A DNA stretch of 14,363 nucleotides from a virus. Lineage: Duplodnaviria; Heunggongvirae; Uroviricota; Caudoviricetes. Position numbers and translations under genes: made by a program. The notes beneath the pieces were generated by a model, which made no database searches, had not been told where the DNA came from, and saw only the letters and a program-made list of their open reading frames with translations. Within the stretch, counting starts at the first letter, position 1. Each line of letters starts with the position of its first letter. Shown here piece after piece: positions 1 through 14,106 of the stretch. The stretch is taken from the IMG/VR virus record IMGVR_UViG_2681813233_000009; one strand, given 5' to 3'.

Positions 1-20
1 TCTGGATAATGCCAGCGTAG
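1..20. repeat. attL-side copy of att core (direct repeat; may extend left of the window)
   Basis: Identical to 14033-14052; sequences diverge immediately 3' of ...gcgtag (tcgtggcg here versus ggaagtca at the right copy). Confidence 0.7.
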
Positions 21-107
21 TCGTGGCGATTATCCTCATATAAATCAAAAGATTATTGCTCCTTTTCGTCCCGTATTGTTCAGCCGTAACACATTGAGGC
101 TCTCCAA

Positions 108-1463
108 ATGGGACACAAAACCATACGCCACACCATTAAACGTAACGGAATCTATTACGTTCGCTTCCGTCTGCCTGATAACAAGTTTTTCCGTAAGTCT
201 TTAGAGACTGACAGCCACACCCAGGCGCAGTTGCTCATGTCTTTTGCTTCTCCTGTAATCCCTCTGGTTCAACGTGGAACCATTCACCCGGATCAGTTTT
301 GTCAACGTCTTTCTGATTTCAGCAACCGCTTAAAGCAACAGAATGAACACTGGCTGGTTCAACAATTTCTCAGTGATGAACGGCGCAATCTTCAGCCGAT
401 AGTTGTTCAGGAATACCGCGAGGTTGTTGCGCCTTCAGAAGATGAGGAAGAACAAACAGAAGCACAGTCAAAGGATGTGTTAACACTGGCTGGCGCTTGG
501 AATATGTACAAAAAGGAAAAAGCCCAAAACTGGACGAAGGCAATTTCACAGGCCAATGAGCGCTTTATGGAAGTCATGTTCATTGTCGTGGGTGCATCTA
601 AAGATGTAACCACGATTACCAAGCAAGACATTAAACAGGTAATGGAGGTTGTTGAAAACTTGCCTAAGCGTGTTGTACAGCCTTACCGTTCGATGACGGT
701 TCAGCAACTGATCGAGTGTGATGATGTTCCGCCTGAAGATTTGGTTGGCGCTGAGTCTATCCACAAGCATTTGAAGATTTACAAATCGTTGTTTAAAACC
801 TTCCTGACAGACAATAAAGATATTCTGGAGAAGTCTCCGACTGATGGAGTGGTCGCCTCACCATCTAAAGCAAGGTTTGGTGCATATAGCGCAGCAGAAA
901 TGAGAAAGTTTGTGGGGTGGGCGCTCAAGCAGCCTGACGGGTGGCAGAAGTGGATCACTTTGCTGTTGGCGTACACGGGAGCCAGAAGAGGGGAGATCGC
1001 CAAGCTGGAGAAATCACAGATCAAATTTGATGAAGATAGCCAGCGGCACTATCTCCTGATCGCGGAAGGAGGGCAGGGTAAAACCGAGAACGCTACAAGG
1101 CAGGTGGCGATCCATCCCAAACTCATCGAGTGGGGGTTCCTCGAATTTGTAAATCGCCAATGGAAAGAGAAAATCTTCTCGCCTGTGTCGGGTAAGAACA
1201 TGCCGAAGATCGGCAAAGTTTTAGCCGATGTCCGCGATCAGCTTGGTATTCCGTACCTTGATGATTATGGGCAGCGGCGGCTAGTTCACAGTTTCCGGCA
1301 TACCATGATTTCAACCTGTTTAGCAGGCTGGGTTGGTAATCTGGCACACCTGCAACAGGTGGTAGGCCATGAGAAAAGCGGTTCAGGGATCACTAGACGC
1401 TACCTACACACGTTCCCTTTATCAACGATCTGTTATGTGATTGATGGGTTGGGTTGGGAATAG
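108..1463 (+). CDS. int: Tyrosine site-specific integrase (phage integrase family), 451 aa
   Basis: ATG at 108 with GAGG 8 nt upstream; C-terminal catalytic motifs readable in the translation: ...TGARRGEIAKL... (Arg), HSFRHT (His-x-x-Arg), VGHEKSG (His), TRRYLH (Tyr nucleophile); sits next to the att repeat. Confidence 0.9.
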   Translation: MGHKTIRHTIKRNGIYYVRFRLPDNKFFRKSLETDSHTQAQLLMSFASPVIPLVQRGTIHPDQFCQRLSDFSNRLKQQNEHWLVQQFLSDERRNLQPIVVQEYREVVAPSEDEEEQTEAQSKDVLTLAGAWNMYKKEKAQNWTKAISQANERFMEVMFIVVGASKDVTTITKQDIKQVMEVVENLPKRVVQPYRSMTVQQLIECDDVPPEDLVGAESIHKHLKIYKSLFKTFLTDNKDILEKSPTDGVVASPSKARFGAYSAAEMRKFVGWALKQPDGWQKWITLLLAYTGARRGEIAKLEKSQIKFDEDSQRHYLLIAEGGQGKTENATRQVAIHPKLIEWGFLEFVNRQWKEKIFSPVSGKNMPKIGKVLADVRDQLGIPYLDDYGQRRLVHSFRHTMISTCLAGWVGNLAHLQQVVGHEKSGSGITRRYLHTFPLSTICYVIDGLGWE

Positions 1464-1523
1464 CTGTTTATTAATAAAAGAAAAGCATTAGAAATATTTC
1501 CTTTAGTAAGTTTTTGGGTATCA

Positions 1524-1544
1524 TTCGCCCCGTAATGGGGCGAA
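1524..1544. terminator. Hairpin between the convergent int and cargo genes (possible weak bidirectional terminator)
   Basis: 8-bp stem ttcgcccc/ggggcgaa (1524-1531 with 1537-1544), loop gtaat; no clear U-tract on either strand, so function is uncertain. Confidence 0.3.
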
Positions 1545-1555
1545 ATCAAAACTAG

Positions 1556-2578
1556 CTATTCGGAAGTGACTTGGCTTTGCTTTTTTATCGTTCTGGTTTT
1601 CAACATTTCAATCTGGCCAGCTTCGGTTAATGACCAGAAAGTATTCATGCTGCCATTGGTGGTTTTTAAATATTCAATTTTTATCAAACCATATGCCCTA
1701 AATTGCACTCCTATCGTTTTAAGGTCTTGAGAAGATACTTTTGCTGATGTGCCTCCCTTGCCTGCGACCTTTTGAGCGCTTTTGGCAATTGTGTATGATA
1801 CGCTTGATTCAGTATAATATTGAGTGAGATAGGGGGAGATTGAGTGAAAAATATCCTTCCATTTCATTTTCACGGACCAGTGTTTTGTTCCACCGGGATC
1901 ATACCCGATTCGAGGAAAGGTGGACTCACATCTAAATTCAAAATCATCATCAAAGTCAGCCAGATCCAGATCAAGTGTTTGACTAAGATTACTTGTGGCC
2001 TTGGCTAGTTCACTTTTTAACCATTCATTCTCTTTTTGTAAATCAACCATAGCCCGTAAATCAGTTTCAGAAGACGTTAGGTTGGCTCTTACCCATCCGA
2101 TTGCTGGATAAGTTTTCATCGTTTTACTCATACTTAAAGCAACCAACCCGGGTAAATCTTTGGCTGTTGCCCATGTTTTCCTGAGACGATTGGTTGAGGC
2201 CTTCTCTATAAATGCAGCTAGCTTCTCTCTGAGTTCAGAATCTTTTTCAGATTTGGCTAAAGGTAGATTTTCCGGATTCTCATGTACCAAAACAACGACG
2301 CGTAAACCTTTTGAAACTGCGTAATCGAATTCCTTTTCCGTGTAACTTAAACCATCTTCCGCGACAGAGCCATAACGACCACCAATGATCAGCAGATAAT
2401 AATCACAGTCATCAATTACTTTTTTTATGAACTCCCATTGGCCTTCATCGATTGCTGGGAACAACTCCATGCCTGCTGGAATGCAATCCATTTCCATCAG
2501 AGTTTGTATGACGTGTTTTCGTTCTTCTTCTAAATCCGTAAAAGTTGAACTTACGAAAACCTGGTAACGTTTATCCAT
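1556..2578 (-). CDS. Cargo protein, 340 aa, with N-terminal DUF4062-like motif ([16 protein letters not shown]); candidate defense or abortive-infection protein
   Basis: ATG at 2576-2578 (minus) with AAGGGA RBS; uninterrupted 340-codon ORF; visibly more AT-rich than neighbouring genes; N-terminal FVSSTF-DL-EER motif matches my recollection of the DUF4062 family; central coiled-coil-like segment ([28 protein letters not shown]). Domain assignment not verified by HMM. Confidence 0.8.
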
Positions 2579-2584
2579 TTTTAT

Positions 2585-2616
2585 CCCTTAAAAGAGGAAG
2601 GGGCATTAGCCCCTTC
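2585..2616 (-). terminator. Putative intrinsic terminator or attenuator between the small Cys-rich ORF and the cargo gene
   Basis: 8-bp GC-rich stem gaaggggc/gccccttc (2597-2604 with 2609-2616), loop atta; on the minus-strand RNA it is followed by CCUCUUUU, which overlaps the RBS of the downstream cargo gene. Confidence 0.4.
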
Positions 2617-2624
2617 ATTCAACA

Positions 2625-2891
2625 TTAACCAGCGTGACGGTAGGATTCACGCACACCATCACGATAACCATCAGCGAACGCTGCTTGAGGACTTTTGTGG
2701 CGAACGGTTCCCGCCTGGCTATCAGGTAAGGCGGCTAAGTCTACCCAAACCTGACCCGTGCGAGCCAAGCCAGCGCGGTAACCCTGATCGTAAGCGCAGC
2801 CGCAACATTTATGGCGACCTTCACCACCTTGATCGTGAGGTAAGCTGATGAAAAGAGTATTGTAACGGTGTGACTGTTTACAAATGGTCAT
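2625..2891 (-). CDS. Small Cys-rich hypothetical protein, 88 aa (MTICKQSHRYNTLFISLPHDQGGEGRHKCCGCAYDQGY...)
   Basis: Internal ATG at 2889-2891 (minus) preceded by a strong AAGGAG RBS at 6-nt spacing; the longer track ORF (to 3014) has no RBS. GC-richer than the adjacent cargo gene. No family recognised. Confidence 0.5.
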   Translation of the reverse strand: MTICKQSHRYNTLFISLPHDQGGEGRHKCCGCAYDQGYRAGLARTGQVWVDLAALPDSQAGTVRHKSPQAAFADGYRDGVRESYRHAG

Positions 2892-3571
2892 GCAATGCTC
2901 CTTATGAGCGTTCATTTTAAGGTTTACATGATCCTCTTTGCCTGGCACAATCAAGCCGTCAGAAATGAAGGCAAGGCTAAGATTCATACGAGTTTGGCGA
3001 CTCCTATTGGTCATGCTTTGTAAGCCGGGTTCGTGAAAATGAATCCGGTTTTTTTATGCCTAAAAATCAGGCATGGCACTACATGTGGGGGTGGTCAATC
3101 AATGGTGGCCCCACATAGACGATATTCTAGTGATGATTCTTTTCTGCACAAGGGTTGATTTTGACGTTAAATTGAGGTTGTGAAAGGGTAAAAATGCAAA
3201 ACCCTGCACAGCATAAGGCTTGGAAGACATGTCAATGATTAAGAAAAAAAAATCAAAATTTGATCGAGTGCTGATTTCTTCAACGGGAGGTCAGAATTGC
3301 GCGACATGATGTCGCGTAATCTTTATAAGAATAATGAATGGCATTAGTCGTTTTTGATGGTCTCTTGTAACATATAGTTAACATATAGATGTTCGTGAAG
3401 GGAGAAAGGCGCGAAAGGTAAATGTTATCTGGATAGTCTACCAATGCCTGTACCAGTACGAAAAGAGCGCTAATCATACCGAACTTAATCTCATAAAGGT
3501 TTTCACGAGAGCGAAGGACGTTAACGCTAGATTGCGAAACGAAACATTTCATTCTCTTCAATCTTTGGGTA

Positions 3572-3610
3572 ATAAAAAAGGCTGACCCGTTAAGGTCAGC
3601 CTTCTTAAAA
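3572..3610 (-). terminator. Rho-independent terminator ending the minus-strand capsid operon (bidirectional-looking)
   Basis: 8-bp stem ggctgacc/ggtcagcc (3580-3587 with 3594-3601), loop cgttaa; A-run 3572-3579 on plus (U-run after the stem on the minus RNA); ttctt follows on the plus strand. Confidence 0.6.
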
Positions 3611-3622
3611 TCAATGTGTTAC

Positions 3623-3811
3623 TTACTTCTTTTGACGCTGTTTAGCGATCATAACGTTAAGCGCGTATTCAAAACCGTGTTGCGATTCCAAACGGCTAAA
3701 CGTCACGTTACACAGGCCCAACTCTCTACACAGTGCTTTACGGTTTACGACCTCCGCCGCGCCAGATACATAGACTTGACCAGCGCCGGGGATATTGATT
3801 GAAACTTTCAT
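3623..3811 (-). CDS. Hypothetical small protein, 62 aa, last gene of the capsid operon
   Basis: ATG at 3809-3811 (minus) with GAGGTG upstream; co-directional with the capsid gene and followed by the terminator at 3572-3610. The overlapping plus-strand ORF 3614-3802 lacks this context. Confidence 0.45.
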   Translation of the reverse strand: MKVSINIPGAGQVYVSGAAEVVNRKALCRELGLCNVTFSRLESQHGFEYALNVMIAKQRQKK

Positions 3812-3903
3812 GTGTCACCTCAAAAATAAAAGTAAAAATGAATATAACCGGAAGAGATAACCCCCAGCCGATACCCAAAGGGCGCGACCGGGGGCATTCT
3901 CTA

Positions 3904-4923
3904 TTACTTCAGCTTGACGTTCAGCATGTAGTTCGGGCGCAGGTTCAGAGGAATGAAGCTCGCCTCTTGGTGAACGGTCACCATGCCGTAACGGTCAGTC
4001 ATTACTTTTTGGTAGTAAGGGCTGATCACACCTTTAGCGGAGATATCCTGATTACGTGAAGCCGGGCCGCGTACCAGTTTGAACGGGTTACGATCCGCTG
4101 CACTGAACTTTGGAACGAACAGGCCGGAACCTGCCGCGATTTCGTAGCGGTCATCGTCCGCCAGAATGAAAGTAATGTTGCCAATGCTGAAGGAGTCATA
4201 ACCCGCAGTGTTAACCGGGATCAGAGCGCCTTTTGCAGCCTCCGCCACTTTGTTGGTGATCAGGCTGGTTACTTCTGGGTGGCTCGCCAGAACGTCATAC
4301 AGATCCGGGGAGCAGAAGCAATAGAAGCGGTCCAGATAGGAGCGGCTCGCGCCGTACTCTTTAACCAACATGCGGCGAATCTTCGCAAGCTGTGCATAGA
4401 CGTTAGCGCCTGCTGAACCGTCGAGGTCGAAACTCAGCGGAGCAGTACCAAACACAGCGTTAAAATCTACGTCGCCGTCATCCGTTTTAGCCGCTTTCGC
4501 TTCCTGCTTGAACAGGGCGCGGGCCAGTGTGCTTTCAACTGTTTCCAGATGATAGTTACGCATACGGATAGCTTTATCAGCAATAACAGATGTGATCGCC
4601 TGAGCCTGATCCGGGTTAGCCGGGCTTACCAGGCCTTGCCAGTCAGCGGTTTTTACATCCGCCTCAGTGGCATAGTGTGGGATCTCCTGGTTACGCAGGA
4701 TGGTTTTATCCATCATGATCGCGTTAACTTCGGTGCCATAGCGGGCAACCTGCTCCAGTTCACTAACCTGAGTTTCCACAATATCCACAATCTGGGCGTT
4801 TGGAGTGGTTGAGTTAACATCGGAGAAGATACCCAGATCAGAGATCAGGTAATTACCTGCTGGTTGATCTTTGATCGCCGCTACAGTGTCCAGCTTTTCA
4901 AACTGTTTAAAATCAATAGCCAT
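3904..4923 (-). CDS. Putative phage major capsid protein, 339 aa (family not verified)
   Basis: ATG at 4921-4923 (minus), AGGAA RBS; starts 12 bp after the stop of the upstream small gene (small-gene/capsid-gene arrangement as in lambda D-E); A/D/S/T-rich composition typical of virion proteins. Capsid assignment is by context and gestalt, not by alignment. Confidence 0.6.
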   Translation of the reverse strand: MAIDFKQFEKLDTVAAIKDQPAGNYLISDLGIFSDVNSTTPNAQIVDIVETQVSELEQVARYGTEVNAIMMDKTILRNQEIPHYATEADVKTADWQGLVSPANPDQAQAITSVIADKAIRMRNYHLETVESTLARALFKQEAKAAKTDDGDVDFNAVFGTAPLSFDLDGSAGANVYAQLAKIRRMLVKEYGASRSYLDRFYCFCSPDLYDVLASHPEVTSLITNKVAEAAKGALIPVNTAGYDSFSIGNITFILADDDRYEIAAGSGLFVPKFSAADRNPFKLVRGPASRNQDISAKGVISPYYQKVMTDRYGMVTVHQEASFIPLNLRPNYMLNVKLK

Positions 4924-4935
4924 TGTGTGATTTCC

Positions 4936-5307
4936 TTATGCTTTGAAGTAATCGGCGTTGATAGCCAGGCGAATATCACCGGAGGCTGTCAGCGCTTCCA
5001 GTGCGGCTTTTTTGCTCGCGGCGTCTTTAGCACGTAGGGCAAAATCGGTAATCACAACATGGCGATCCACGATAACCAGCGTTTTAGTCTTGCCATCGGC
5101 GGACATATTGGAAAGGTTAATGATCGGCTTGCCAGCTTCAGCGGCGGCGGAGTCGAACAGGGCAAAAGTTTTGCTGTCCAGAATATCGCCACAGTAGACG
5201 TCAGCCGGGAGGCTTGGGGCGGTTACTTCGGTGCGGTCAAACAGGCTGGAGGCGTAGTTGACGATTACGTCACCTTGCGTTACCGGGTAGCGCTCGGAAG
5301 TTTTCAT
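4936..5307 (-). CDS. Putative head decoration or capsid-associated protein, 123 aa
   Basis: ATG at 5305-5307 (minus) with AAGGAAAA RBS; the track ORF extends to 5451 but lacks an RBS there; tightly coupled (12 bp) to the downstream capsid gene. Confidence 0.5.
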   Translation of the reverse strand: MKTSERYPVTQGDVIVNYASSLFDRTEVTAPSLPADVYCGDILDSKTFALFDSAAAEAGKPIINLSNMSADGKTKTLVIVDRHVVITDFALRAKDAASKKAALEALTASGDIRLAINADYFKA

Positions 5308-5437
5308 AAAGGTTTTCCTTATGGAGGGTTTTAGACGTGGAGAGAGTCCACAGGATGATCCGGCGTTGCACCGAATATAAGGACCGCCACAGAGGACAAT
5401 CCGAATTGTTGGAAGATGGGAGGCCGTGGATTGAATA

Positions 5438-5467
5438 GAAGAGGGCGGCATCCGCGCCGCCCTTTCT
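5438..5467 (-). terminator. GC hairpin with flanking U-rich tracts upstream of the capsid operon (possible leader terminator)
   Basis: 7-bp stem gggcggc/gccgccc (5443-5449 with 5456-5462), loop atccgc; tttct follows on plus, and tcttctatt follows on the minus RNA; lies about 135 bp upstream of the decoration-gene start. Confidence 0.4.
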
Positions 5468-6551
5468 AATCTGGCTCTCTCTCACCCTCGCGGGTGGGGA
5501 AGGATATTTATCCTTTTGTGTGGATACTTGCCGCCCCTGGTGGCGTCACGTCGAATAGCACCAACCTTTTGGCAAATACCCACAAAAAAGAACCCGGCTG
5601 GAGGAACCGGGGTGGACAATGTAACTTACTGTATGATCACTTGTTTTCCTGTGTAGCCTCAGAGCCTTACATGATTTGCTTTCATGGTTCAGCAAAGAAG
5701 CCACAGAGGAAAACGGGCACCCTGAACGCGCCCGGAAACCATCGACGCAAATCAATAGTTTATCGTTGAGACCAGGTAACCAGCCCGGCCCAACTGTGAC
5801 CCCGTGGAGGGTCGATACAATTGAAGGAGATTCGCTTGTATTCTGAAGAGCCGCAGTTAGCGACGCTTTAGAATAGGGCCTGTGGCGCAAGCACTATGAT
5901 TAGAGGCGTTTTGAATCGTAGGAGTGAAACAATCGGCGGAACTTGAGGAGAGGACCGCACACAAAGCATTCTGGCAAGTGGAGTTGAAAGAACACTTTGG
6001 GTGAGGGCCGGGGCGGGGGAGAAGCCGCCCGGCTCACTCAGTACAGATCCTAATTGCACACGTTGCGACTCTGTACAGGTGGGGGGCGTGACAAGCTGCA
6101 AAACGGTAATTTCGATATCCTCGCCACACCCCACACCATGTATATTAGTTTAACACGAATGATTATCATTTGCAATAAAAATTAATTGCATTGTGTTGAG
6201 TCTTATGATATTGGCGGCCACACACGTGACGGATCAGATCTGCATTAATTTTTATTAGTGAGTGGTCTGACTCAGGGAGGGCTATGTGTCCCAAAAGACA
6301 CACGAAGTAATAATAGATATATAAGACCTCGCTACGCTCGCCCTCCGGGTCCGTCTTATTGATCTTATATAATAACTTCATTCAATAACTAATTGTTTTC
6401 ACAATTAATCATTTCATTCGTTATTATATGATCTTAAAACCTTCTCGCCCTTTGGGCTTACCAGGTTTTAGGCCGGGGCCTATTTCCCCACAATGTAGAG
6501 TCTCGCCTGTGTGGCTCATCTCCCGGGGGGCATTTTGAAACAAGGGTGTAC

Positions 6552-6612
6552 TGACAAAATGTCACAACGTGTTATGACAGATTGGCACAACGTGTTATGA
6601 CAAAATGTCACA
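6552..6612. promoter_or_regulatory. Cluster of dyad-symmetric repeats (operator- or iteron-like)
   Basis: 17-mer cacaacgtgttatgaca occurs twice (6563-6579 and 6586-6602), 6 bp apart; 15-mer tgacaaaatgtcaca occurs twice (6552-6566 and 6598-6612); each unit is itself a near-palindrome (TGACA-aaa-TGTCA; TGTCAcAACG/tGTTaTGACA). Confidence 0.5.
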
Positions 6613-7052
6613 TAATAAGATAAGTATATAAAACACCCTTAAAAGACAAACACCTAGGGCCAGGTCAAGATCTTAAAGAGATTGAGGGTGAATTATTGAT
6701 TGAACAATCAAGAGATCAGACTCTTTAGGAAAGAGCCTTACAGGCTCGCCTCCCTTTTGGGGCAATCGCAGAAACAGAAACCGCAACGCGGTTTTCTTTT
6801 CTGCTCTTTGGGAACACCGGAACGATGTGAAGGTGACATCTGGGCGGCGGGGTGGGGTGCCCGGCGCGGAGTGATACACAGTACAGAACCACAACCCACA
6901 GGAACCAACCTAAACGCGCCTCTGTGGCGCTCTCTCATATGCAGACACGGAAACACCTTATAAACACCCTGCGCCTCACTGAGAGCGTTACAGCGGCTTT
7001 CTATGCCTCTAGCACAATAAACAACTGAGCGCAAGATAAATCAAGAAAGTTG

Positions 7053-7081
7053 TTGCGAATCATTGTCAAATAGTGTAAAAT
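7053..7081 (+). promoter_or_regulatory. Candidate sigma70 promoter for the plus-strand operon
   Basis: TTGCGA (7053-7058), 17-bp spacer, TAAAAT (7076-7081), about 75 bp upstream of the ATG at 7156. Read by eye only. Confidence 0.3.
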
Positions 7082-7155
7082 AGATACTGTGATGAGGTAT
7101 TTATTCGAATATATAGATCCCCATCATACTATAACAAACATGAAAGGAGATTGCA

Positions 7156-7581
7156 ATGAGTATTTACCTCGATGTTGAAAAAATGGTTGAACGTGTCGAT
7201 CAGCGTGACCTGACCCGTAAGACCCTGACAGAAACCCGTAGCCGAATGAAAGCCGCCGGACGTATGGGAGAAGTTGAAGCGATTACGCAGGCCCTTGAAA
7301 TGACCAAATCAAAAGCATCCGGCGTCATGCGACAGTCTCAACGTATCGCTGCAAAGATCACCGAGATGGACGCAGAGAAAGCACTTGAAGTTAAAGCAGC
7401 CGTTTCGCTGTTCGCTTCCAAGTCTACAGACATGCAAGCCTCCATTGTGCTGGCGTTCCAATCCCTCTTTGAGGCTAAAGGCGTCCCGATGGAATACGAC
7501 GAAGTGATGGCTTTTATCATGCTGCAAGCGGCGGATCAGTTTGAGCGTATCACCGGAGAGTTGCCCGTTATCGTTCACTAA
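7156..7581 (+). CDS. Hypothetical protein, 141 aa
   Basis: ATG with AAAGGAGA RBS; first gene of a co-directional, tightly packed gene string; no family recognised. Confidence 0.7.
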   Translation: MSIYLDVEKMVERVDQRDLTRKTLTETRSRMKAAGRMGEVEAITQALEMTKSKASGVMRQSQRIAAKITEMDAEKALEVKAAVSLFASKSTDMQASIVLAFQSLFEAKGVPMEYDEVMAFIMLQAADQFERITGELPVIVH

Positions 7582-7610
7582 TTATTCATTTACTTTTTGG
7601 AGAGGAAACA

Positions 7611-7862
7611 ATGAGCAAATATCAGCCGTATGTTGATTTGAGTGATTCCCCTGTGTTGTCGGCGTATGCACAGCAGACGATCAACCAGTTGGACCCAACC
7701 CTGTACGATGACATTTACGAAATGTTGAAGCAGGTTAGTCCCTCCAAGTTGGTGACGATTGGCAACCCGGCGATCACCGCCCCGGCGTCATGGTGGGGTG
7801 ATTGGTTCGGCCTCAACCTCACCGCTGAAGACATCGCAGAATTACAGGAGATTGATCTCTAA
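7611..7862 (+). CDS. Hypothetical protein, 83 aa
   Basis: ATG at 7611 with GGAGAGGA RBS; its stop overlaps the next start (TAATG). Confidence 0.65.
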   Translation: MSKYQPYVDLSDSPVLSAYAQQTINQLDPTLYDDIYEMLKQVSPSKLVTIGNPAITAPASWWGDWFGLNLTAEDIAELQEIDL

Positions 7863-8041
7863 TGCAGATTGAATTTTCCCCCGAAGTGGCGGATCAGCTT
7901 TTTGAGTTGGCCCGCACAAGGAAGCACGGCTCCGCCTACGCAATCGTAAGAAAAGCAGTTAAGCAGTATTTGGATTCAGTTGAAGCTATTAACCCTGTTG
8001 AAGAGGATTTAACCCATGACCGCAGCACCCGCAGCAAGTAA
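7862..8041 (+). CDS. Small ribbon-helix-helix-like DNA-binding protein, 59 aa (absent from the ORF track)
   Basis: ATG at 7862-7864 overlapping the upstream stop (TAATG); translation MQIEFSPEVADQLFELARTRKHGSAYAIVRKAVKQYLDSVEAINPVEEDLTHDRSTRSK has an RHH-like strand-helix-Gly-helix pattern; overlaps the next gene by 26 nt in another frame. Confidence 0.5.
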   Translation: MQIEFSPEVADQLFELARTRKHGSAYAIVRKAVKQYLDSVEAINPVEEDLTHDRSTRSK

Positions 8042-8681
8042 GCCGTTTACCGCAATCCCGCATGACCTTGCGGACATTGAACAGATCAGCGGTAAGGCGT
8101 TTACCATGAACATGGTTTACACCTACAGCCTGATCAAATCCTTCCAGGACAATGGGCAAACGGCTTATTTCTCACAGGAGCTTTTGGCCCGTCGCCTGGG
8201 GGCATCCATCCGCAGCGTGATCCGCCTCCTGGCGGAGATGGTGGAAATGGGATTGATCAATAGTACCGGGCGCGTGGGTGGCAAGACCTGCCATTACACA
8301 GTTAACCCGATCACCCCGGAAATGGTGGGAACCCCTGAAGCCGCCAAACCTGAAGTAACCAAACCAACCGCAGCACCCCAACCCGTGGAGACCGTAGAGA
8401 ATGCAGGAAGTAACCAGCCTGGAATTGTTAAGTGTGGATCTGAAAGCGTACATAGAAGCCGCCCGGCGTCGTCTGGAGTTGCTCCTGTGGACCACAGCGG
8501 GGGCGCTGTTCGTCCCGCTCCTGTCCCTGTGCCAGTAGAGCAGGGGGCCGCAAACGATGATTTACGTAACCCTGTTATTAATTATGTGGCTGGCTCTAAT
8601 GTGATGATGGTCAACGGTTTGCCTGTTGAATATCTGGAGCCAGAAGAAAGCGGCATTGATCAGTTTGGTGATGCCTTCTAA
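8016..8681 (+). CDS. Putative winged-helix DNA-binding protein, 221 aa (replication initiator or regulator candidate)
   Basis: ATG with GAGGA upstream; HTH/winged-helix-like segment FSQELLARRLGASIRSVIRLLAEMVEMGLINSTGRVGG; Pro/Ala-rich linker and acidic C-terminal tail (EPEESGIDQFGDAF). Confidence 0.7.
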   Translation: MTAAPAASKPFTAIPHDLADIEQISGKAFTMNMVYTYSLIKSFQDNGQTAYFSQELLARRLGASIRSVIRLLAEMVEMGLINSTGRVGGKTCHYTVNPITPEMVGTPEAAKPEVTKPTAAPQPVETVENAGSNQPGIVKCGSESVHRSRPASSGVAPVDHSGGAVRPAPVPVPVEQGAANDDLRNPVINYVAGSNVMMVNGLPVEYLEPEESGIDQFGDAF

Positions 8682-8757
8682 AAATCTGCGATTGATTTCC
8701 CACTAATAACACTCTACACAAAACCCCCGCCGTTTACAACCCTTTGGAGATTCTCGC

Positions 8758-9324
8758 ATGAATAACTTTATCACTACTAAATTCAACGCCTTAACCTCCG
8801 AAGAGGAAGCCGCAGTAAATGCACTGGCGGAGAAATTAGCAGCAAACAAGCCCCGTCGGATTATGGATGAGAGCCATTTGACCCCGGATCAAATCCTGAA
8901 GATCAAGCGGGCCTGTATTCAGGGCCACAGCGCTAAAGCCATCCAAGCGGCCTTTAACGTGTCGCTGGCTTACGTCCTGAGAGTAAAGCGCTCCCACAAC
9001 CCTAAGAAGTACCAGAAGACCCCGCTCACCTTGCCAGAAAAGGCAGTGTTGGCCCAGCAGATGGACGCCGATAATTTGAGCTTGGATAAAATGGCGGAAC
9101 TTCTGGGGATCAACAGTAAGATGGTTTCCCTACTTCTTACCCAACCTTCACCCCGTTACCTGGTGGAGCAAATGCTCCCGTATGACCAAGTTTTACAGAA
9201 CCTCCGCAGCGCCCGCTACGTGGAAAGCCCTGTATACAAAAAAGGGACGAGTATGCGCCGTGTGCGACTGATCGTTTCTGAAGCTCGTCAGCAGGCCCGC
9301 CAGGCAATCATTAAATCCCGGTAA
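8758..9324 (+). CDS. Putative HTH-containing protein, 188 aa
   Basis: ATG with GGAGA RBS 8 nt upstream; two HTH-like segments (LTPDQILKIKRACIQGHSAKAIQAAFNVSLAYVLRVK; LSLDKMAELLGINSKMVSLLL). Function unverified. Confidence 0.65.
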   Translation: MNNFITTKFNALTSEEEAAVNALAEKLAANKPRRIMDESHLTPDQILKIKRACIQGHSAKAIQAAFNVSLAYVLRVKRSHNPKKYQKTPLTLPEKAVLAQQMDADNLSLDKMAELLGINSKMVSLLLTQPSPRYLVEQMLPYDQVLQNLRSARYVESPVYKKGTSMRRVRLIVSEARQQARQAIIKSR

Positions 9325-9495
9325 TTATGTCCAACCCAACGGAATGGGACCTAAAGGATTACTTAGGTTCCAAACTGGTTAAGCGTCAGACAAGACTCTC
9401 TAACTTTCTCGCCCCCTTCCTCTATATCCCCTTTAAGCCCGCTTCCCTCCTCCTGTGGGTAGTGGTAATCACTTTCATTATAAGGACTCTCTCAA

Positions 9496-9870
9496 ATGCA
9501 CCCCTTTGAACTACTGAAACGCCAGCTTGACGAAATGGCGAAATCCCGCCAGGTAGAGCAGGCCCAAGAGGAAGCCGCCGCCCGTGAACTCCGCAAGGCA
9601 CAGGCCGATCTCTCCCTGGACGAGGCTATTGCTCTGTACGGTACACAGTTGGAAGCCTCCACCGATGCAGCAGACAGCGCCCAGAAGGGCCGCGCCATTA
9701 AGAGCCGGGGAATTGCTCTGTGTCACAAGGATCAGGGATTCAGCGCCAACGGTCGCCCTGTGTCTCTCCTGACCAAATCAGCAGATCTGCCAGCAGGTCA
9801 CCGCCGGGTAATCATCAACAAAGCAGCAGGGCGCACCCTGAAGGCTATCAATCTGGAAGGGGCTGAATAA
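9496..9870 (+). CDS. Hypothetical protein, 124 aa, translationally coupled to the tape-measure-like gene
   Basis: ATG at 9496 with AAGGA RBS; its stop overlaps the next ATG (TAATG at 9868-9872). Confidence 0.6.
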   Translation: MHPFELLKRQLDEMAKSRQVEQAQEEAAARELRKAQADLSLDEAIALYGTQLEASTDAADSAQKGRAIKSRGIALCHKDQGFSANGRPVSLLTKSADLPAGHRRVIINKAAGRTLKAINLEGAE

Positions 9871-11990
9871 TGAGCGGTAACGTCATCATCACGAAGACCG
9901 TAAACAGAACTACGTTCACCACGGACGGGGCCAGCTATAAGAAGACGGTTGACCGTATCAAACAGGTGGGGAAAGAGTGGGATAAAGTCTCCTCTAAAAT
10001 GAAGCCTCTACGGATGAAATTTGAGGAAAACGCCTACACCAAGATCCGCCGGAAACAGCAGGACGCCACCGCAAAAGCAGCACTGGCAGAAGCCAAAGCC
10101 AAAGCCGCAGCGGAAGCCAAAGCGGCAAAAGCCCAACTAGCAGCGGAGCGTAAACTCCAGACAATCCGCGCTAAAGCTATTCGCTTTAATACCGCAGCGG
10201 CTAACGCCAACGTTACCCCGGCCCAACGTGCTGGACACCTCCAGGAGTTTGGACAGCTTACGCGCCAGTATCACGCCGGGTCTATGGCATTACAGGAATA
10301 TAACGCCCGTGTGTCACGCCTTCAGCAAACCATGCGCCAACAAGGCCGGGTAGGCATGAGGGGAGCCACAATTCCCGTAACCGCCAAAGTAAACAAACTG
10401 GATACCTCCATGATCGAGGGTGCAGGCGGGGCGATCACAATTGCCGCCACTGTGGCACTCTCCGGCAAGATCATGACTACCGGACAGGATTTTGAATCCG
10501 CTATGTCTGGTCTTACAGCGATCACCGGTTCCACAGAAAAAGCCGGGAAAGAGTTTGATTATCTTCGTGAACAGTCCAACCGTCTGGGGCTGGACCTTCT
10601 GAAAACTTCAAAAGACTATACGCAGTTTGCCGCCGCTGTTGGGGACAAACTCCCTAAAGACCAGATGCGATCCATCTTTGAGGGTGCTTCAGAGTGGGGC
10701 CTTGTTACTGGTGCATCCGCAGATGAGCAATCACGTGCGTTAAAGGCCCTTAACCAGATGATGTCTAAGGGTACGGTCATGAGTGAAGAACTTAAAGGCC
10801 AGTTGTCCGAGGCTCTCCCCGGCTCTGTGGGTCTGTTCGTTAAAGCCCTTAACGACATGAAAGGCGTTACCAACCTGACCGAGCAAGATTTGTTTAAGCT
10901 GATGGAAGACGGGAAGCTGTTCTCTAAGGACATCCTCCCACATGTGGCTAAACAGATGAAGGAAGCGGCCCGGCAGGGTGGCGCACTTGATAAGGCGATG
11001 AAGTCCAACCGGGCATCATGGCAGCGCCTCAATACCAGTATGCAGAACGCTATGAATGTGTTTTTCACTTCTGGCTTCGGTAACTCCCTTACCAACGCTT
11101 TCGACTCAATCAGCGCCGCTATTGACGGATCTGGTGGAGCCTTTGAGATGTTCGGGCATATCGCCGGGAAAATCGTTGAAGGTGCCACAGATGCGTTTAC
11201 AGAGTTGCATGACACTGTGATCCTGACCTTCCGCATTATTGAGTATTACGCCGCCAAAATGGGGATCAGTGGGGAGCAGCTCAAAGCCTGGGGAGAAATG
11301 GCAGCATATGCCGCCGGGGTGGCTCTGTTCGCTGGCTCTGTTTACAAGTTGGGCGGGGCTTTCAAGTGGGTCCTCACCATGCTGAACCCTCTTACCAAGT
11401 TGTTGGGAGTCATGAAGGGGATCGCCGCTATTGGTGGCATTGAGGCCGCTTCTGAAGCTCTGAGCGACGGTAAGCCAGGTAAAGACGGCCAGCCGGGCAA
11501 ACCGGGAACCCCATCAAAGAACACCAAGCCGATCGGCGCGGGCCGTGGCGTTAACTTTGGCCTCCCGGCTATTATCGCCGCTGTATCTCTGAATGACCGC
11601 CTTGATCAGATTCAGGCAGACCCGGAAGCGTTTAAGCGAAAGGTACAGGAGAATAATGATCGGCCTACGCTGTGGACTGACATCATGGAAGCATTCTCCG
11701 GCAGTTGGTACGAAAAGCAGCAGAACGCAAACCAGCAGGCAGCACAGACCGCAGCACTCGATCAGACTGTTCGTGTTGCTGTTCCAACCTTCATCCCTCC
11801 AACCACAGCGACGGTTACAGGTGGCTACGGTAATCCACTGATGACGCCGCCAGCGTGGCTAAACCAGCCGCTAAACGTGAGCGTTAATGTGAAGGTGCAA
11901 GATGGACAGGTGAAAAACCTTGTGCAATCTGAGATTGAACGTAATGAACAGGCGGCATTTAACATGCTGATGCAGGGCGGGCCAAACTAA
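9870..11990 (+). CDS. Phage tail tape-measure-like protein, 706 aa
   Basis: N-terminal Ala/Lys-rich coiled-coil (AKAALAEAKAKAAAEAKAAKAQLAAERKL); central segment LKGQLSEALPGSVGLFVKALNDMKGVTNLTEQDLFKLMEDGKLFSKDILPHVAKQMKEAAR resembles the conserved tape-measure motif as I recall it; hydrophobic Gly/Ala-rich segments; collagen-like GKPGKDGQPGKPGTP; followed by a terminator. Confidence 0.8.
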   Translation: MSGNVIITKTVNRTTFTTDGASYKKTVDRIKQVGKEWDKVSSKMKPLRMKFEENAYTKIRRKQQDATAKAALAEAKAKAAAEAKAAKAQLAAERKLQTIRAKAIRFNTAAANANVTPAQRAGHLQEFGQLTRQYHAGSMALQEYNARVSRLQQTMRQQGRVGMRGATIPVTAKVNKLDTSMIEGAGGAITIAATVALSGKIMTTGQDFESAMSGLTAITGSTEKAGKEFDYLREQSNRLGLDLLKTSKDYTQFAAAVGDKLPKDQMRSIFEGASEWGLVTGASADEQSRALKALNQMMSKGTVMSEELKGQLSEALPGSVGLFVKALNDMKGVTNLTEQDLFKLMEDGKLFSKDILPHVAKQMKEAARQGGALDKAMKSNRASWQRLNTSMQNAMNVFFTSGFGNSLTNAFDSISAAIDGSGGAFEMFGHIAGKIVEGATDAFTELHDTVILTFRIIEYYAAKMGISGEQLKAWGEMAAYAAGVALFAGSVYKLGGAFKWVLTMLNPLTKLLGVMKGIAAIGGIEAASEALSDGKPGKDGQPGKPGTPSKNTKPIGAGRGVNFGLPAIIAAVSLNDRLDQIQADPEAFKRKVQENNDRPTLWTDIMEAFSGSWYEKQQNANQQAAQTAALDQTVRVAVPTFIPPTTATVTGGYGNPLMTPPAWLNQPLNVSVNVKVQDGQVKNLVQSEIERNEQAAFNMLMQGGPN

Positions 11991-12004
11991 CCGCCAATAT
12001 AATA

Positions 12005-12031
12005 AAGGCTCCCCTAGTGGGAGCCTTTTCT
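12005..12031 (+). terminator. Rho-independent terminator after the tape-measure-like gene
   Basis: 7-bp stem ggctccc/gggagcc (12006-12012 with 12018-12024), loop ctagt, followed by ttttctctttt. Confidence 0.6.
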
Positions 12032-12060
12032 CTTTTATACATTTCTAATGTCCTGGCTTT

Positions 12061-12627
12061 TCATAACAGATCCGCTATTGAATATTTATCACTAAAATCA
12101 TCTACTTTGCGTTGTGTGGCCCCAATGTAATGAAGCGTACTGGATAACGATTTGTGCCCTAATGCTTTACTAATTACAGCTATATCCTCCCCATTGTCAT
12201 AACCAATCGTTGGTTTACTCTTCCTCATGCTGTGGGTCGAAAGATTCAGCCCCAGCTTTTCCCCGGCGTAGCTAATTTCCTCATGCAATTTGGAGCGGCT
12301 CACAGGTTTTCCCTTGCTCCTGTGGCTGTCCAACTGTAAGAGGTACACATTATCAGGGTTAGCCTCTCTCCGGGCCGCTATGATGCGTTTAGCGGTATCG
12401 GTAAGCCTCACCCGGACAGATTCACCCGTTTTCTGTTGGGACAGGACAAGGTGATCGCCTTTGATGTCGGCATAACGGATAGAGCGCAGATCCGACACCC
12501 TCAGCATTAATTCATAACCCAATAACCAGGCGTCACGGTACAGCGTCAGCCCCTTGCCCTGTTTGAGTAGCTCAACTGCTACCGCTTTCACTTCCTGAAC
12601 TGATTTACAGCCCTCTACGAAATTCAT
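12061..12627 (-). CDS. Small tyrosine recombinase, catalytic domain only (FimB/FimE-sized), 188 aa
   Basis: ATG at 12625-12627 (minus) with GGAGAG RBS; the track ORF begins at an upstream TTG without an RBS; motifs LRVSDLRSIRYADI (Arg), HSMRKS (His-x-x-Arg), LGHKSLSSTLHY (His and Tyr). Confidence 0.8.
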   Translation of the reverse strand: MNFVEGCKSVQEVKAVAVELLKQGKGLTLYRDAWLLGYELMLRVSDLRSIRYADIKGDHLVLSQQKTGESVRVRLTDTAKRIIAARREANPDNVYLLQLDSHRSKGKPVSRSKLHEEISYAGEKLGLNLSTHSMRKSKPTIGYDNGEDIAVISKALGHKSLSSTLHYIGATQRKVDDFSDKYSIADLL

Positions 12628-13020
12628 TCTGTACTCTCCAGAACCTAACTGTGATAAATTTTTGATCAAAAACAAGCACTTGTAAACGACAAAAATTATT
12701 AATTTTAAGTTGTGTCTTTTTAGTGAATTAAATCGGGTTTAATCGCGTTTAATGGCAGAGTAATGACCCGGCAGGGGAGGTAATGGGCTGTTTATGTGGG
12801 TAAAAGATGGTTGCTTAATGTACTATTACCACAAGACGGGTAAGGTGATTTGACTCCCTCAGTTCCTTTAAGCTACTGTATTTATGGGAAATTAATTATT
12901 GTTTCTTTATGGTGTTGCCTGGCAAATTTTCAGTTTACCCTCAAGAAAAATCCCCATCTTTTTTATTCTCCACATGAGAATAAATTTTGTTTGCAAATAT
13001 CACTCATTCTCAACTCCAGT

Positions 13021-13199
13021 CGGGGCGAAAGCCTTCGCCCCTTAAAGGGCCTTTGTAGGCTCGCTCTCTGTATGCGCCTGTGGCGCTACCACTCTCAACC
13101 CTGTGGGTTTGTATGGCTTGCCACAAGATAACGCGCCACAGGCGCACAGGGGAGGCGGACGCCTCCTGGGTGGCCCGGCTGGGCCACTGGTCCACAGGG
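13021..13199. other. GC-rich structured non-coding segment (multiple hairpins and a paired palindrome)
   Basis: Hairpin ggggcgaa/ttcgcccc (13022-13041); palindromes gcgcctgtggcgc (13074-13086) and its exact reverse complement gcgccacaggcgc (13133-13145); hairpins ggaggcg..cgcctcc and ggccc..gggcc (13150-13185); the only ORFs here lack RBS and context. Confidence 0.35.
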
Positions 13200-13588
13200 T
13201 AAAAGGACAGAATGGTATTGTGTTGTTATTAAGTTGTTGAGATTAAAGGGATGTCTTAGGGGGGACTGTAGTGGAGGAAGGTTGGGCAGGGTTTAATCAG
13301 AATGCAGGTCACTCGGCAGGGAGTGCCCTTAGATATTTGGCGAAAATACACGTGACCCCCCAGGGCCTCAGGTTGAAGGGCCTAGCAACAATATCCAAAC
13401 TCCCGGATATTTTCCCACCCAACTGGAAGGAATCCGCCCCTATTTTCTGTTCGTGTATAAGTTAGGCTGAGGGAGGCTTGCCAATGTACACCCCCTGGAT
13501 TTGGTGATCTGTTAAGTTATTGATTTTGATCGATTTTAGATCAATCATCCGTTGCCGGGATTACCCCCACCCAGACGGATGGCACACA

Positions 13589-13771
13589 ATGAATAACGAT
13601 AAAGCAAACCACCCTAAACACTTCCAATACTTGGGCCGCATGGTCACTGTTTACCCTACATACATCATTATTGACGGTATCAAGATTAGCCGTTCCCGTC
13701 TTTCCTTTGCATTCCAATTGGAATTGGCAAAAGCACTTCGACTGCATGAAGAAAGCGTATGCAGAAAATAG
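13589..13771 (+). CDS. Hypothetical small protein, 60 aa (alternative TTG start at 13520 gives 83 aa)
   Basis: ATG at 13589 with a weak GGA-containing RBS; followed by a strong terminator; no family recognised. Confidence 0.35.
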   Translation: MNNDKANHPKHFQYLGRMVTVYPTYIIIDGIKISRSRLSFAFQLELAKALRLHEESVCRK

Positions 13772-13807
13772 ATTTCATTTAAATCTTCACGACTGAATAA
13801 TTTACTT

Positions 13808-13832
13808 AAGCCGCCTTATGGGCGGTTTTTTT
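13808..13832 (+). terminator. Rho-independent terminator
   Basis: Stem ccgcc/ggcgg (13811-13815 with 13821-13825), loop ttatg, followed by a 7-T run (13826-13832). Confidence 0.6.
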
Positions 13833-13981
13833 GTGCCTGCCATTTATCTGTGGGTCACAACGTGAGACACAAACTGGGACACAGAGGATTTTTTAGGGTT
13901 GAGTCTTTGGCTTCCCGCTGGCATGATCCAGAACAGGGATTAACGGGACGTTAATCGCAAGCTTTTGATTTTGTTTTATTT

Positions 13982-14106
13982 GACTCGGGGTGCCCTTCTG
14001 CGTGAAGGCTGAGAAATACCCGTATCACCTGATCTGGATAATGCCAGCGTAGGGAAGTCACGGACCACCAGGTCATTGCTTCTTCACGTTATGGCAGGAG
14101 CAAACT
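13982..14106 (+). promoter_or_regulatory. TPP (THI-box) riboswitch of thiM: aptamer plus expression platform
   Basis: Sequence gactcggggtgcccttctgcgtgaaggctgagaaatacccgtatcacctgatctggataatgccagcgtagggaag matches the E. coli thiM TPP aptamer as I recall it (including the conserved CUGAGA element); it runs into the thiM RBS (aggag at 14096-14100). Confidence 0.9.
14033..14052. repeat. attR-side copy of att core, lying inside the TPP aptamer
   Basis: Identical to positions 1-20. Confidence 0.7.

Follow-up and report, generated by a model that had tools for sequence, protein, structure and literature searches.

The repeat array in the middle of the non-coding region of the window, by which we mean the whole 14,363-nucleotide stretch of DNA analyzed here, is probably the iteron set of the vegetative replication origin of an integrative element, bound by a 221-aa initiator that resembles RepA_N proteins and lambda O and whose DNA specificity can be swapped. 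We put the probability of this reading at roughly 78%, and we infer from the sequence the binding of the array, the melting of the DNA next to it, the recruitment of replication proteins and, indeed, that the element replicates at all. Among the functions that a first-pass annotation had listed for the repeats (operator, origin iterons or packaging site, with a preference for an origin or a distal site), our analysis supports origin iterons and leaves a classical operator unsupported, as no promoter-like sequence overlaps the array.

The window represents a ~14-kb integrative element (1-14100) upstream of thiM, whose TPP riboswitch (13976-14072) is the sole Rfam match in the window (gathering threshold and E <= 1), with nothing relevant in 5300-7200. 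E. coli relatives of the element lie between rcnR and thiM or beside a tRNA-Gly gene; no tRNA gene was found in the window. The element codes for a 451-aa tyrosine integrase, for a second, small integrase at its right end and, on the minus strand, for a major capsid protein of the lambda gpE family and a gpD-like protein; the 171-aa gpD-like ORF in the window is probably too long, because annotated relatives start this gene at a 123-aa ORF. The plus-strand operon opens with genes for 141-aa, 83-aa and 59-aa ribbon-helix-helix (RHH)-like proteins and continues with those for the 221-aa protein (HTH_36), a 188-aa double-HTH protein, 60-aa and 124-aa proteins and a 706-aa tape-measure-like protein, the RHH gene overlapping that of the 221-aa protein. 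The repeats are placed in the middle of the ~1.8-kb non-coding region (5308-7155) that separates the leftward capsid operon from this rightward operon, and a BLAST search of the region against phages gave no match. Because no terminase, portal, tail or lysis gene was recognized in it, the element looks like a phage satellite; no helicase, loader, primase or polymerase was recognized in it either.

The array (6546-6614) is composed of three tandem, head-to-tail 23-bp units (Table 1), each built around the core dyad TGACA-N3-TGTCA, which is degenerate in the middle unit. In the form TGACA-AAA-TGTCA, inverted sub-repeats surround an A-tract and recur with a 23-bp period, which makes the units semi-palindromic direct repeats. 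The two 17-mers (CACAACGTGTTATGACA, at 6563-6579 and 6586-6602) and the two 15-mers (TGACAAAATGTCA followed by CA, at 6552 and 6598) reported in the first-pass annotation are exact, and its distance of ~540 bp to the first plus-strand gene agrees with the 544 bp that we count to the ATG at 7156. The interlocking of these motifs is also present, but 17-mers and 15-mers are two cuts of one 23-bp array, and the ACGT-centered near-palindrome is only the junction of neighboring units and no separate site. Chance is no explanation for the repeats: TGACANNNTGKCA has five strand-hits in the window compared to 0.09 expected, all of them within 6552-6610, and the 23-mer consensus with up to three mismatches has three matches compared to 0.00 expected, with no further copy of the array elsewhere in the 14.4-kb window in scans with the dyad pattern and the 23-mer consensus. 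At the position of the decayed fourth unit, L039 carries GTGTCATTTTGAAACA; the first iteron of L029, L030 and L015 is GTGTGTCATTTTGAAACA. An AT-rich element adjoins the iterons, with 77 to 80% AT in 30-bp windows starting at 6600-6620. DnaA boxes were not found near the array, the sole box within one mismatch lying about 1 kb away (5519-5527); such boxes accompany the iterons of many plasmid origins, but not those of lambda, and not all origins of this kind need them.

Table 1. Features of the candidate origin region in the window (window coordinates) and the repeat families that occupy the same slot in related loci
Feature	Position	Strand	Sequence and remarks
Left anchor, near-invariant	6500-6518	+	GTCTCGCCTGTGTGGCTCA; variable part starts a few bases later
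Decayed fourth unit, in 23-bp register	6523-6545	+	Core GCATTTTGAAACA at 6530-6542; similar to the first E-family unit
Iteron 1 (candidate)	6546-6568	+	GTGTACTGACAAAATGTCACAAC; core dyad TGACAAAATGTCA at 6552-6564
Iteron 2 (candidate)	6569-6591	+	GTGTTATGACAGATTGGCACAAC; degenerate core TGACAGATTGGCA at 6575-6587; perfect copy in L039
Iteron 3 (candidate)	6592-6614	+	GTGTTATGACAAAATGTCACATA; core dyad at 6598-6610
AT-rich tract, candidate DNA-unwinding element	6610-6650	.	Directly 3' of the last iteron
Right anchor of origin module	6660-6674	+	Conserved block CCAGGTCAAGATCTT
Promoter-like site	7053-7081	+	TTGCGA-17-TAAAAT; for the plus-strand operon including the initiator gene; outside the origin; TAAAAT invariant in a 13-locus alignment
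221-aa candidate initiator gene	8016-8681	+	N-terminal winged helix, disordered Pro/Ala-rich linker, short C-terminal module, acidic tail ending in AF
Codons of recognition helix (aa 65-77) and wing (aa 81-96)	8208-8303	+	Co-vary with repeat family
Type A repeats (window)			GTGTTATGACAAAATGTCACAAC; 3-4 copies
Type B repeats			GGGGTCAnATTGACCCC; 3 copies (1 in L005)
Type C repeats			GGAAATATTTTCC; 3-4 copies
Type D repeats			GGTGTAAAGAAATCAGACA; almost without dyad symmetry; 4-5 copies
Type E repeats			GGTGTGTCAnnnTGnnACA; 3 copies
Type F repeats			D core, inverted; 3 copies
Type G repeats			GGACTAAAGATTCTTTAGT; 3 copies
Type H repeats			GGTGTGTCAATTTGGCGTA; 5 copies
Type I repeats			TGACAnnnTGTCA-like; 5 copies

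Our comparison covered 28 related loci, taken from E. coli genomes, species-representative genomes, viral and metagenome contigs and contigs with diverse homologues of the 221-aa protein; the viral and metagenome contigs were found with the conserved left anchor GTCTCGCCYGTGTGGCTCA, and 11 of the 20 pattern matches, unrelated chance hits, were dropped. The DNA is nearly invariant up to the left anchor in all 28 loci and is conserved again from the AT-rich block and the right anchor onward. Between these flanks the sequence has been replaced wholesale, and nine repeat families (types A to I) are found in the slot, with three to five copies per array (L005, with one, is the exception) and a dominant period of 22 to 23 bp in most families. 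The AT-rich block, CAATAAKAYTA...ATAAGAC, is conserved in all loci and always lies directly 3' of the last repeat copy; in the type B loci L005 and L002 it takes the form of tandem 13-mers, CATAAnACTAAyC. Lone "orphan" copies of a foreign family occur just upstream of some resident arrays, namely, a type C copy in L032 (type A; L032:1485-1505) and in L031 (type F; L031:1520-1540), a type B-like copy in L034 (type G; L034:1172-1192) and a type E-like copy in the window (6530-6542) and L039; these copies resemble remnants left when one cassette replaced another inside the array.

The protein that tracks this replacement is the 221-aa protein, through its N-terminal domain. Between the window and L002 (type B), the 141-, 83-, 188-, 60- and 124-aa proteins, the tape-measure protein, the integrase and the capsid protein are 90 to 98% identical, and only the 59-aa (47%) and 221-aa (74%) proteins are divergent; in the latter, all of the divergence falls within residues 1 to 97, and the sequence is near-identical from residue 98. 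The same comparison reveals two islands of low DNA identity, one at the repeats (44%) and one at the N-domain codons (52 to 66% over 7850-8350), separated by about 1.2 kb of DNA that is 84 to 99% identical, and both islands are 93 to 98% identical to the window in the same-type locus L039. Segment 62-96 of the N-domain falls into nine classes that correspond one-to-one to the nine repeat families, and this is true of divergent backbones too. The window, L039 and L032 have in common the helix AS[IT]RSVIRLLAEM and the TGACAAAATGTCA repeats, L032 combining an L001-like C-domain and backbone with the helix and repeats of the window; L001 and L004 have in common TDRxVRNLLRDM and GGAAATATTTTCC, despite capsid proteins that are only 42% identical; and L006 and L027 have in common VTRQTVVKL and the D repeats GGTGTAAAGAAATCAGACA, with L006 52% identical overall and its gene frameshifted. 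Types D and F, which feature one core sequence in opposite orientations, differ at 3 of the 17 positions of the helix segment. When pairwise protein identity was used to separate locus pairs of the same and of different repeat type, the AUC was 0.992 for the N-domain of the 221-aa protein, 0.86 for its C-domain and 0.70 to 0.90 for the other operon proteins (RHH, 0.90; 141-aa, 0.80; 188-aa, 0.78; 83-aa, 0.70), figures that are descriptive and carry no probabilities because the loci are not independent samples. For each of the other operon proteins, one or more pairs of loci that differ in repeat type encode versions that are 97 to 100% identical, and the C-domain of the 221-aa protein is 97% identical across types in L031 and L005. 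Judged by these alignments, the iterons and the N-domain are a matched specificity module that has been repeatedly exchanged among otherwise near-identical elements, and the extent of the swapping suggests strong selection on origin specificity.

The predicted structure of the 221-aa protein agrees with such a role. An AlphaFold2 model based on 45 homologues features a confident winged helix (pLDDT of about 90 over residues 20 to 100), a disordered stretch (residues 108 to 182) and a small C-terminal beta module; since the model places the recognition helix at residues 65 to 77 and the wing at 81 to 96, the co-varying segment is exactly recognition helix plus wing. The N-domain has the RepA_N/DnaD winged-helix fold, its best Foldseek matches being RepA and DnaD N-domains, with weak E-values (about 5e-3) and a satellite initiator as the best of them. 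Pfam RepA_N (PF06970) does not match the protein, which hits only the generic families HTH_36, HTH_Crp_2 and HTH_24, so that it is a fold-level relative of RepA_N and not a sequence-level member. The PHROG "replication initiation O-like" is matched by 38 of the 45 family members; the other named PHROG matches are to families of replication initiators, DnaD-like loaders or primosomal proteins, save one generic "HTH DNA binding protein" family, and no repressor or terminase is among the named matches of these 45. A search of the sequence profile against the PDB returned only weak generic HTH matches. Among the 120 homologues listed, lengths range from 133 to 225 aa, without nuclease fusions. Nearly all of these homologues (P0001-P0120) have at their C-terminus an acidic stretch and then [PA]-F (window 8640-8678), as in ...DQFGDAF, ...WDLDPAF, ...DFGDPF and ...DEDEPF. 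This tail resembles the C-terminal tip of E. coli SSB (DDDIPF), the docking site of many replication proteins, and may be the recruitment handle. In some loci, the RHH gene is directly preceded by the gene for an additional winged-helix protein of 101 aa (HTH_Crp_2; L027:2517-2822, L034:2517-2822 and L006:3668-3787), which is distantly paralogous to the initiator N-domain (37% identity in L006).

Based on this anatomy, we propose that dimers of the 221-aa protein would bind each 23-bp unit through the winged-helix N-domain, with the recognition helix reading the TGACA/TGTCA half-sites and the wing touching the flanks. With one unit for roughly every two helical turns, the array would take up three or four dimers in a row, all facing much the same side of the double helix. 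Once occupied, it should stress or melt the AT-rich tract, and the disordered linker and the conserved C-terminal module would then recruit host or helper-phage replication proteins, a step that we propose because the element encodes no helicase or primase. Several points argue against the origin reading: the 221-aa protein does not match Pfam RepA_N and its Foldseek matches are weak, its winged helix is also the fold of MarR-type repressors, no DnaA box was found near the array, no helicase, loader or primase was recognized in the element, and the array lies 1.4 kb upstream of its initiator gene, neither inside nor beside it, unlike the origins of lambda and many plasmids.

Another reading, which we consider unlikely, is that the array is a transcriptional operator and that the 221-aa protein acts there, as its sole or an extra role, as a MarR-like repressor or activator of the divergent capsid and regulatory/tape-measure operons. 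The sites are indeed dyad-symmetric and stand between the leftward and the rightward genes, regulators of the MarR, ArsR and Fur types share the winged-helix fold, some database copies of the 221-aa protein are labeled "MarR family" (MarR repressors are likewise winged-helix proteins), and iteron-binding initiators often regulate transcription too. However, a consensus scan detects no sigma-70-like site in 6500-6660, the nearest being at 6398-6427 and 7053-7081, and the latter, the conserved promoter of the plus-strand operon, is about 440 bp from the array and without a repeat copy. Moreover, the arrays hold up to five direct copies, which in type D are almost without dyad symmetry, the AT-rich tract always follows directly, and the profile and fold matches described above lead to replication initiators. 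It is possible that operator function is a secondary role of the array. Just downstream of the TAAAAT -10 element, the window (7085-7135) and most relatives have an inverted repeat (TGATGAGG...CCCCATCA), which is a better operator candidate than the 23-bp repeats, perhaps for the RHH protein.

We regard it as very improbable that the array is instead a packaging site (pac or cosB-like) at which the 221-aa protein, as a small-terminase-like specificity factor of the satellite, hands the element's DNA to a helper terminase. Small terminases combine an N-terminal (winged) HTH, a linker and a short partner-binding C-terminal tail and bind repeated sites, a domain plan that the 221-aa protein fits in outline; the element has no recognizable terminase, and a conserved block 230 bp from the array contains a GGGCGGCG motif that resembles the start of lambda cosN. 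Yet none of the operon proteins matches a terminase family in Pfam, PHROGs or NCBIfam, the fold is best matched by the N-domains of RepA and DnaD, and two-turn phasing beside an AT-rich tract is origin anatomy. Finally, binding of the repeats by another protein of the element can be given hardly any weight: the RHH gene, which overlaps that of the initiator, varies as well, and RHH identity partly tracks the repeat type, but the RHH protein is the same accession in L002 (B) and L003/L004 (C) and is 100% identical in L031 (F) and L005 (B), and the 188-aa, 141-aa and 83-aa proteins are 98 to 99% identical in locus pairs with different repeats. Among the binders suggested at first, the RHH and 188-aa proteins thus fail as specificity determinants, and the 221-aa protein is supported by both helix co-variation over nine families and its initiator fold.

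The non-coding region harbors further conserved features around the candidate origin. Four direct copies of CTCGCC...GGG (6337, 6444, 6502 and 6741) are found in conserved hairpins that flank the iterons (6326-6530 and 6739-6765); some of the stems keep their pairing via two-sided changes, e.g., from GCCC/GGGC to GGCC/GGCC in three loci, and the hairpin region has no Rfam match. These hairpins could be RNA, single-strand initiation hairpins or sites of another protein. Three minus-strand terminator-like hairpins (5734-5714, 5611-5593 and 5463-5442) separate the inter-operon region from the capsid genes and would fit antitermination control of the capsid operon. A family-wide conserved block contains GGGCGGCGGGGT (6842-6853), whose first eight bases are those of the lambda cohesive-end sequence (GGGCGGCGACCT); a helper terminase may use it as a cos site, and the DNA around it had no match in the phage collection.

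As for the element itself, a 71-bp piece of the thiM TPP-riboswitch region (window 13982-14052) occurs at both element ends in L020 (L020:29-99 and L020:11542-13862), which indicates that the attachment site is in the riboswitch leader and that the element carries a replacement copy. Assemblies may break at this duplicated attachment sequence, yielding element-sized contigs. The near-element size of L008, L013 and L020 (12.6 to 13.9 kb), which could be explained by such breaks, was not counted as evidence of excised or circular copies, and no terminal overlap was found in these three contigs. The slot between integrase and capsid genes is a cargo hotspot (window 1556-3561 compared to L002:3976-5424), with a DUF4062 protein and small ORFs in the window, an "ATP-dependent nuclease" in E. 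coli relatives and three hypothetical proteins in L001; PADLOC found no known defense system among the accessory genes of the window. Tape-measure genes are almost unknown in satellites, according to a 2025 preprint (PMC12822802). The 706-aa tape-measure protein shares 28 to 38% identity with its counterparts in large virulent myoviruses (rV5-like Escherichia phages, Cronobacter phages CR3/CR8 and Pectobacterium phage PcCB7V), and the relatives' homologue of the neighboring 124-aa protein belongs to Pfam Phage_phiTE_211; phages of these types may be the helpers. We found no description of this element family in the literature, a search whose coverage was incomplete and which gives absence of evidence only. 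We offer as a speculation, which we hold to be possible but rather doubtful, that these are an apparently undescribed family of enterobacterial satellites with their own capsid, decoration and tape-measure genes that may parasitize large virulent rV5/phiTE-like myoviruses. If this is true, the nine or more interchangeable iteron/initiator specificities would be a record of an arms race with origin-directed attack encoded by the helper (as with Odn against PLE) or of selection against incompatibility between co-resident satellites. The diversification of specificities could be caused by helper counter-attack, by co-resident incompatibility or by drift with co-selection. The analysis assigns a candidate origin and initiator to a ~14-kb island of E. 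coli, Enterobacter, Citrobacter, Cronobacter, Salmonella, Pantoea and Pectobacterium whose genes are currently "hypothetical" or "MarR family" in databases. It also pairs nine natural recognition helices with nine DNA sites in a directly testable list, which could be of use in reading or engineering winged-helix specificity.

These features can be compared to several well-studied replication systems. Among satellites, SaPIs and PICIs encode their own initiators and have element-specific iteron origins; however, the Rep proteins of PICIs are helicases with a partner primase, and the origin directly follows rep, neither of which is the case here. The likeness to lambda O is reflected in the commonest profile match of the initiator family. 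In lambda, the origin features four dyad-symmetric iterons followed by an AT-rich tract, and the N-domain of O, which varies among lambdoid phages, sets origin specificity, while its C-domain recruits the helicase loader. In contrast, ori-lambda is located inside the O gene, which is followed by P, whereas the candidate origin described here is in non-coding DNA and no P-like loader was recognized, the downstream 188-aa protein matching only HTH families. In the staphylococcal RepA_N plasmids pSK41 and pTZ2162, the origin is within the rep gene, and these are Gram-positive theta plasmids and not integrative elements. The iterons of characterized RepA_N initiators are semi-palindromic direct repeats with inverted sub-repeats converging on a poly-A tract (PMC7145576), and TGACA-AAA-TGTCA of the window has exactly this form. 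The closest parallel is PLE, the phage satellite of Vibrio cholerae, for which experiments have shown three semi-palindromic iterons in a non-coding region and that RepA and the origin together suffice as a replicon when the phage infects; both this origin anatomy and the modular specificity match what we deduce here from sequence. With the 221-aa protein as the query, tblastn detected nothing in phages or plasmids, so that no phage protein mimicking the N-domain, as ICP1 Odn does against PLE, was found there or among the listed homologues. The two systems differ in that the initiator described here has no detectable sequence similarity to PLE RepA (14% identity when the structures are aligned), the host is an enterobacterium, a tyrosine recombinase takes the place of a serine recombinase as the integrase, the units span 23 bp compared to about 30 bp, and there are nine specificity families compared to two. 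The kind of system is thus already known; what is new is its occurrence in an enterobacterial island of which we found no description, the nine-family repertoire and an initiator that sequence models do not recognize as RepA_N. The pattern of PLE, a satellite that brings only a RepA_N-like origin binder and takes the remainder of the replisome from elsewhere, is extended to enterobacteria.
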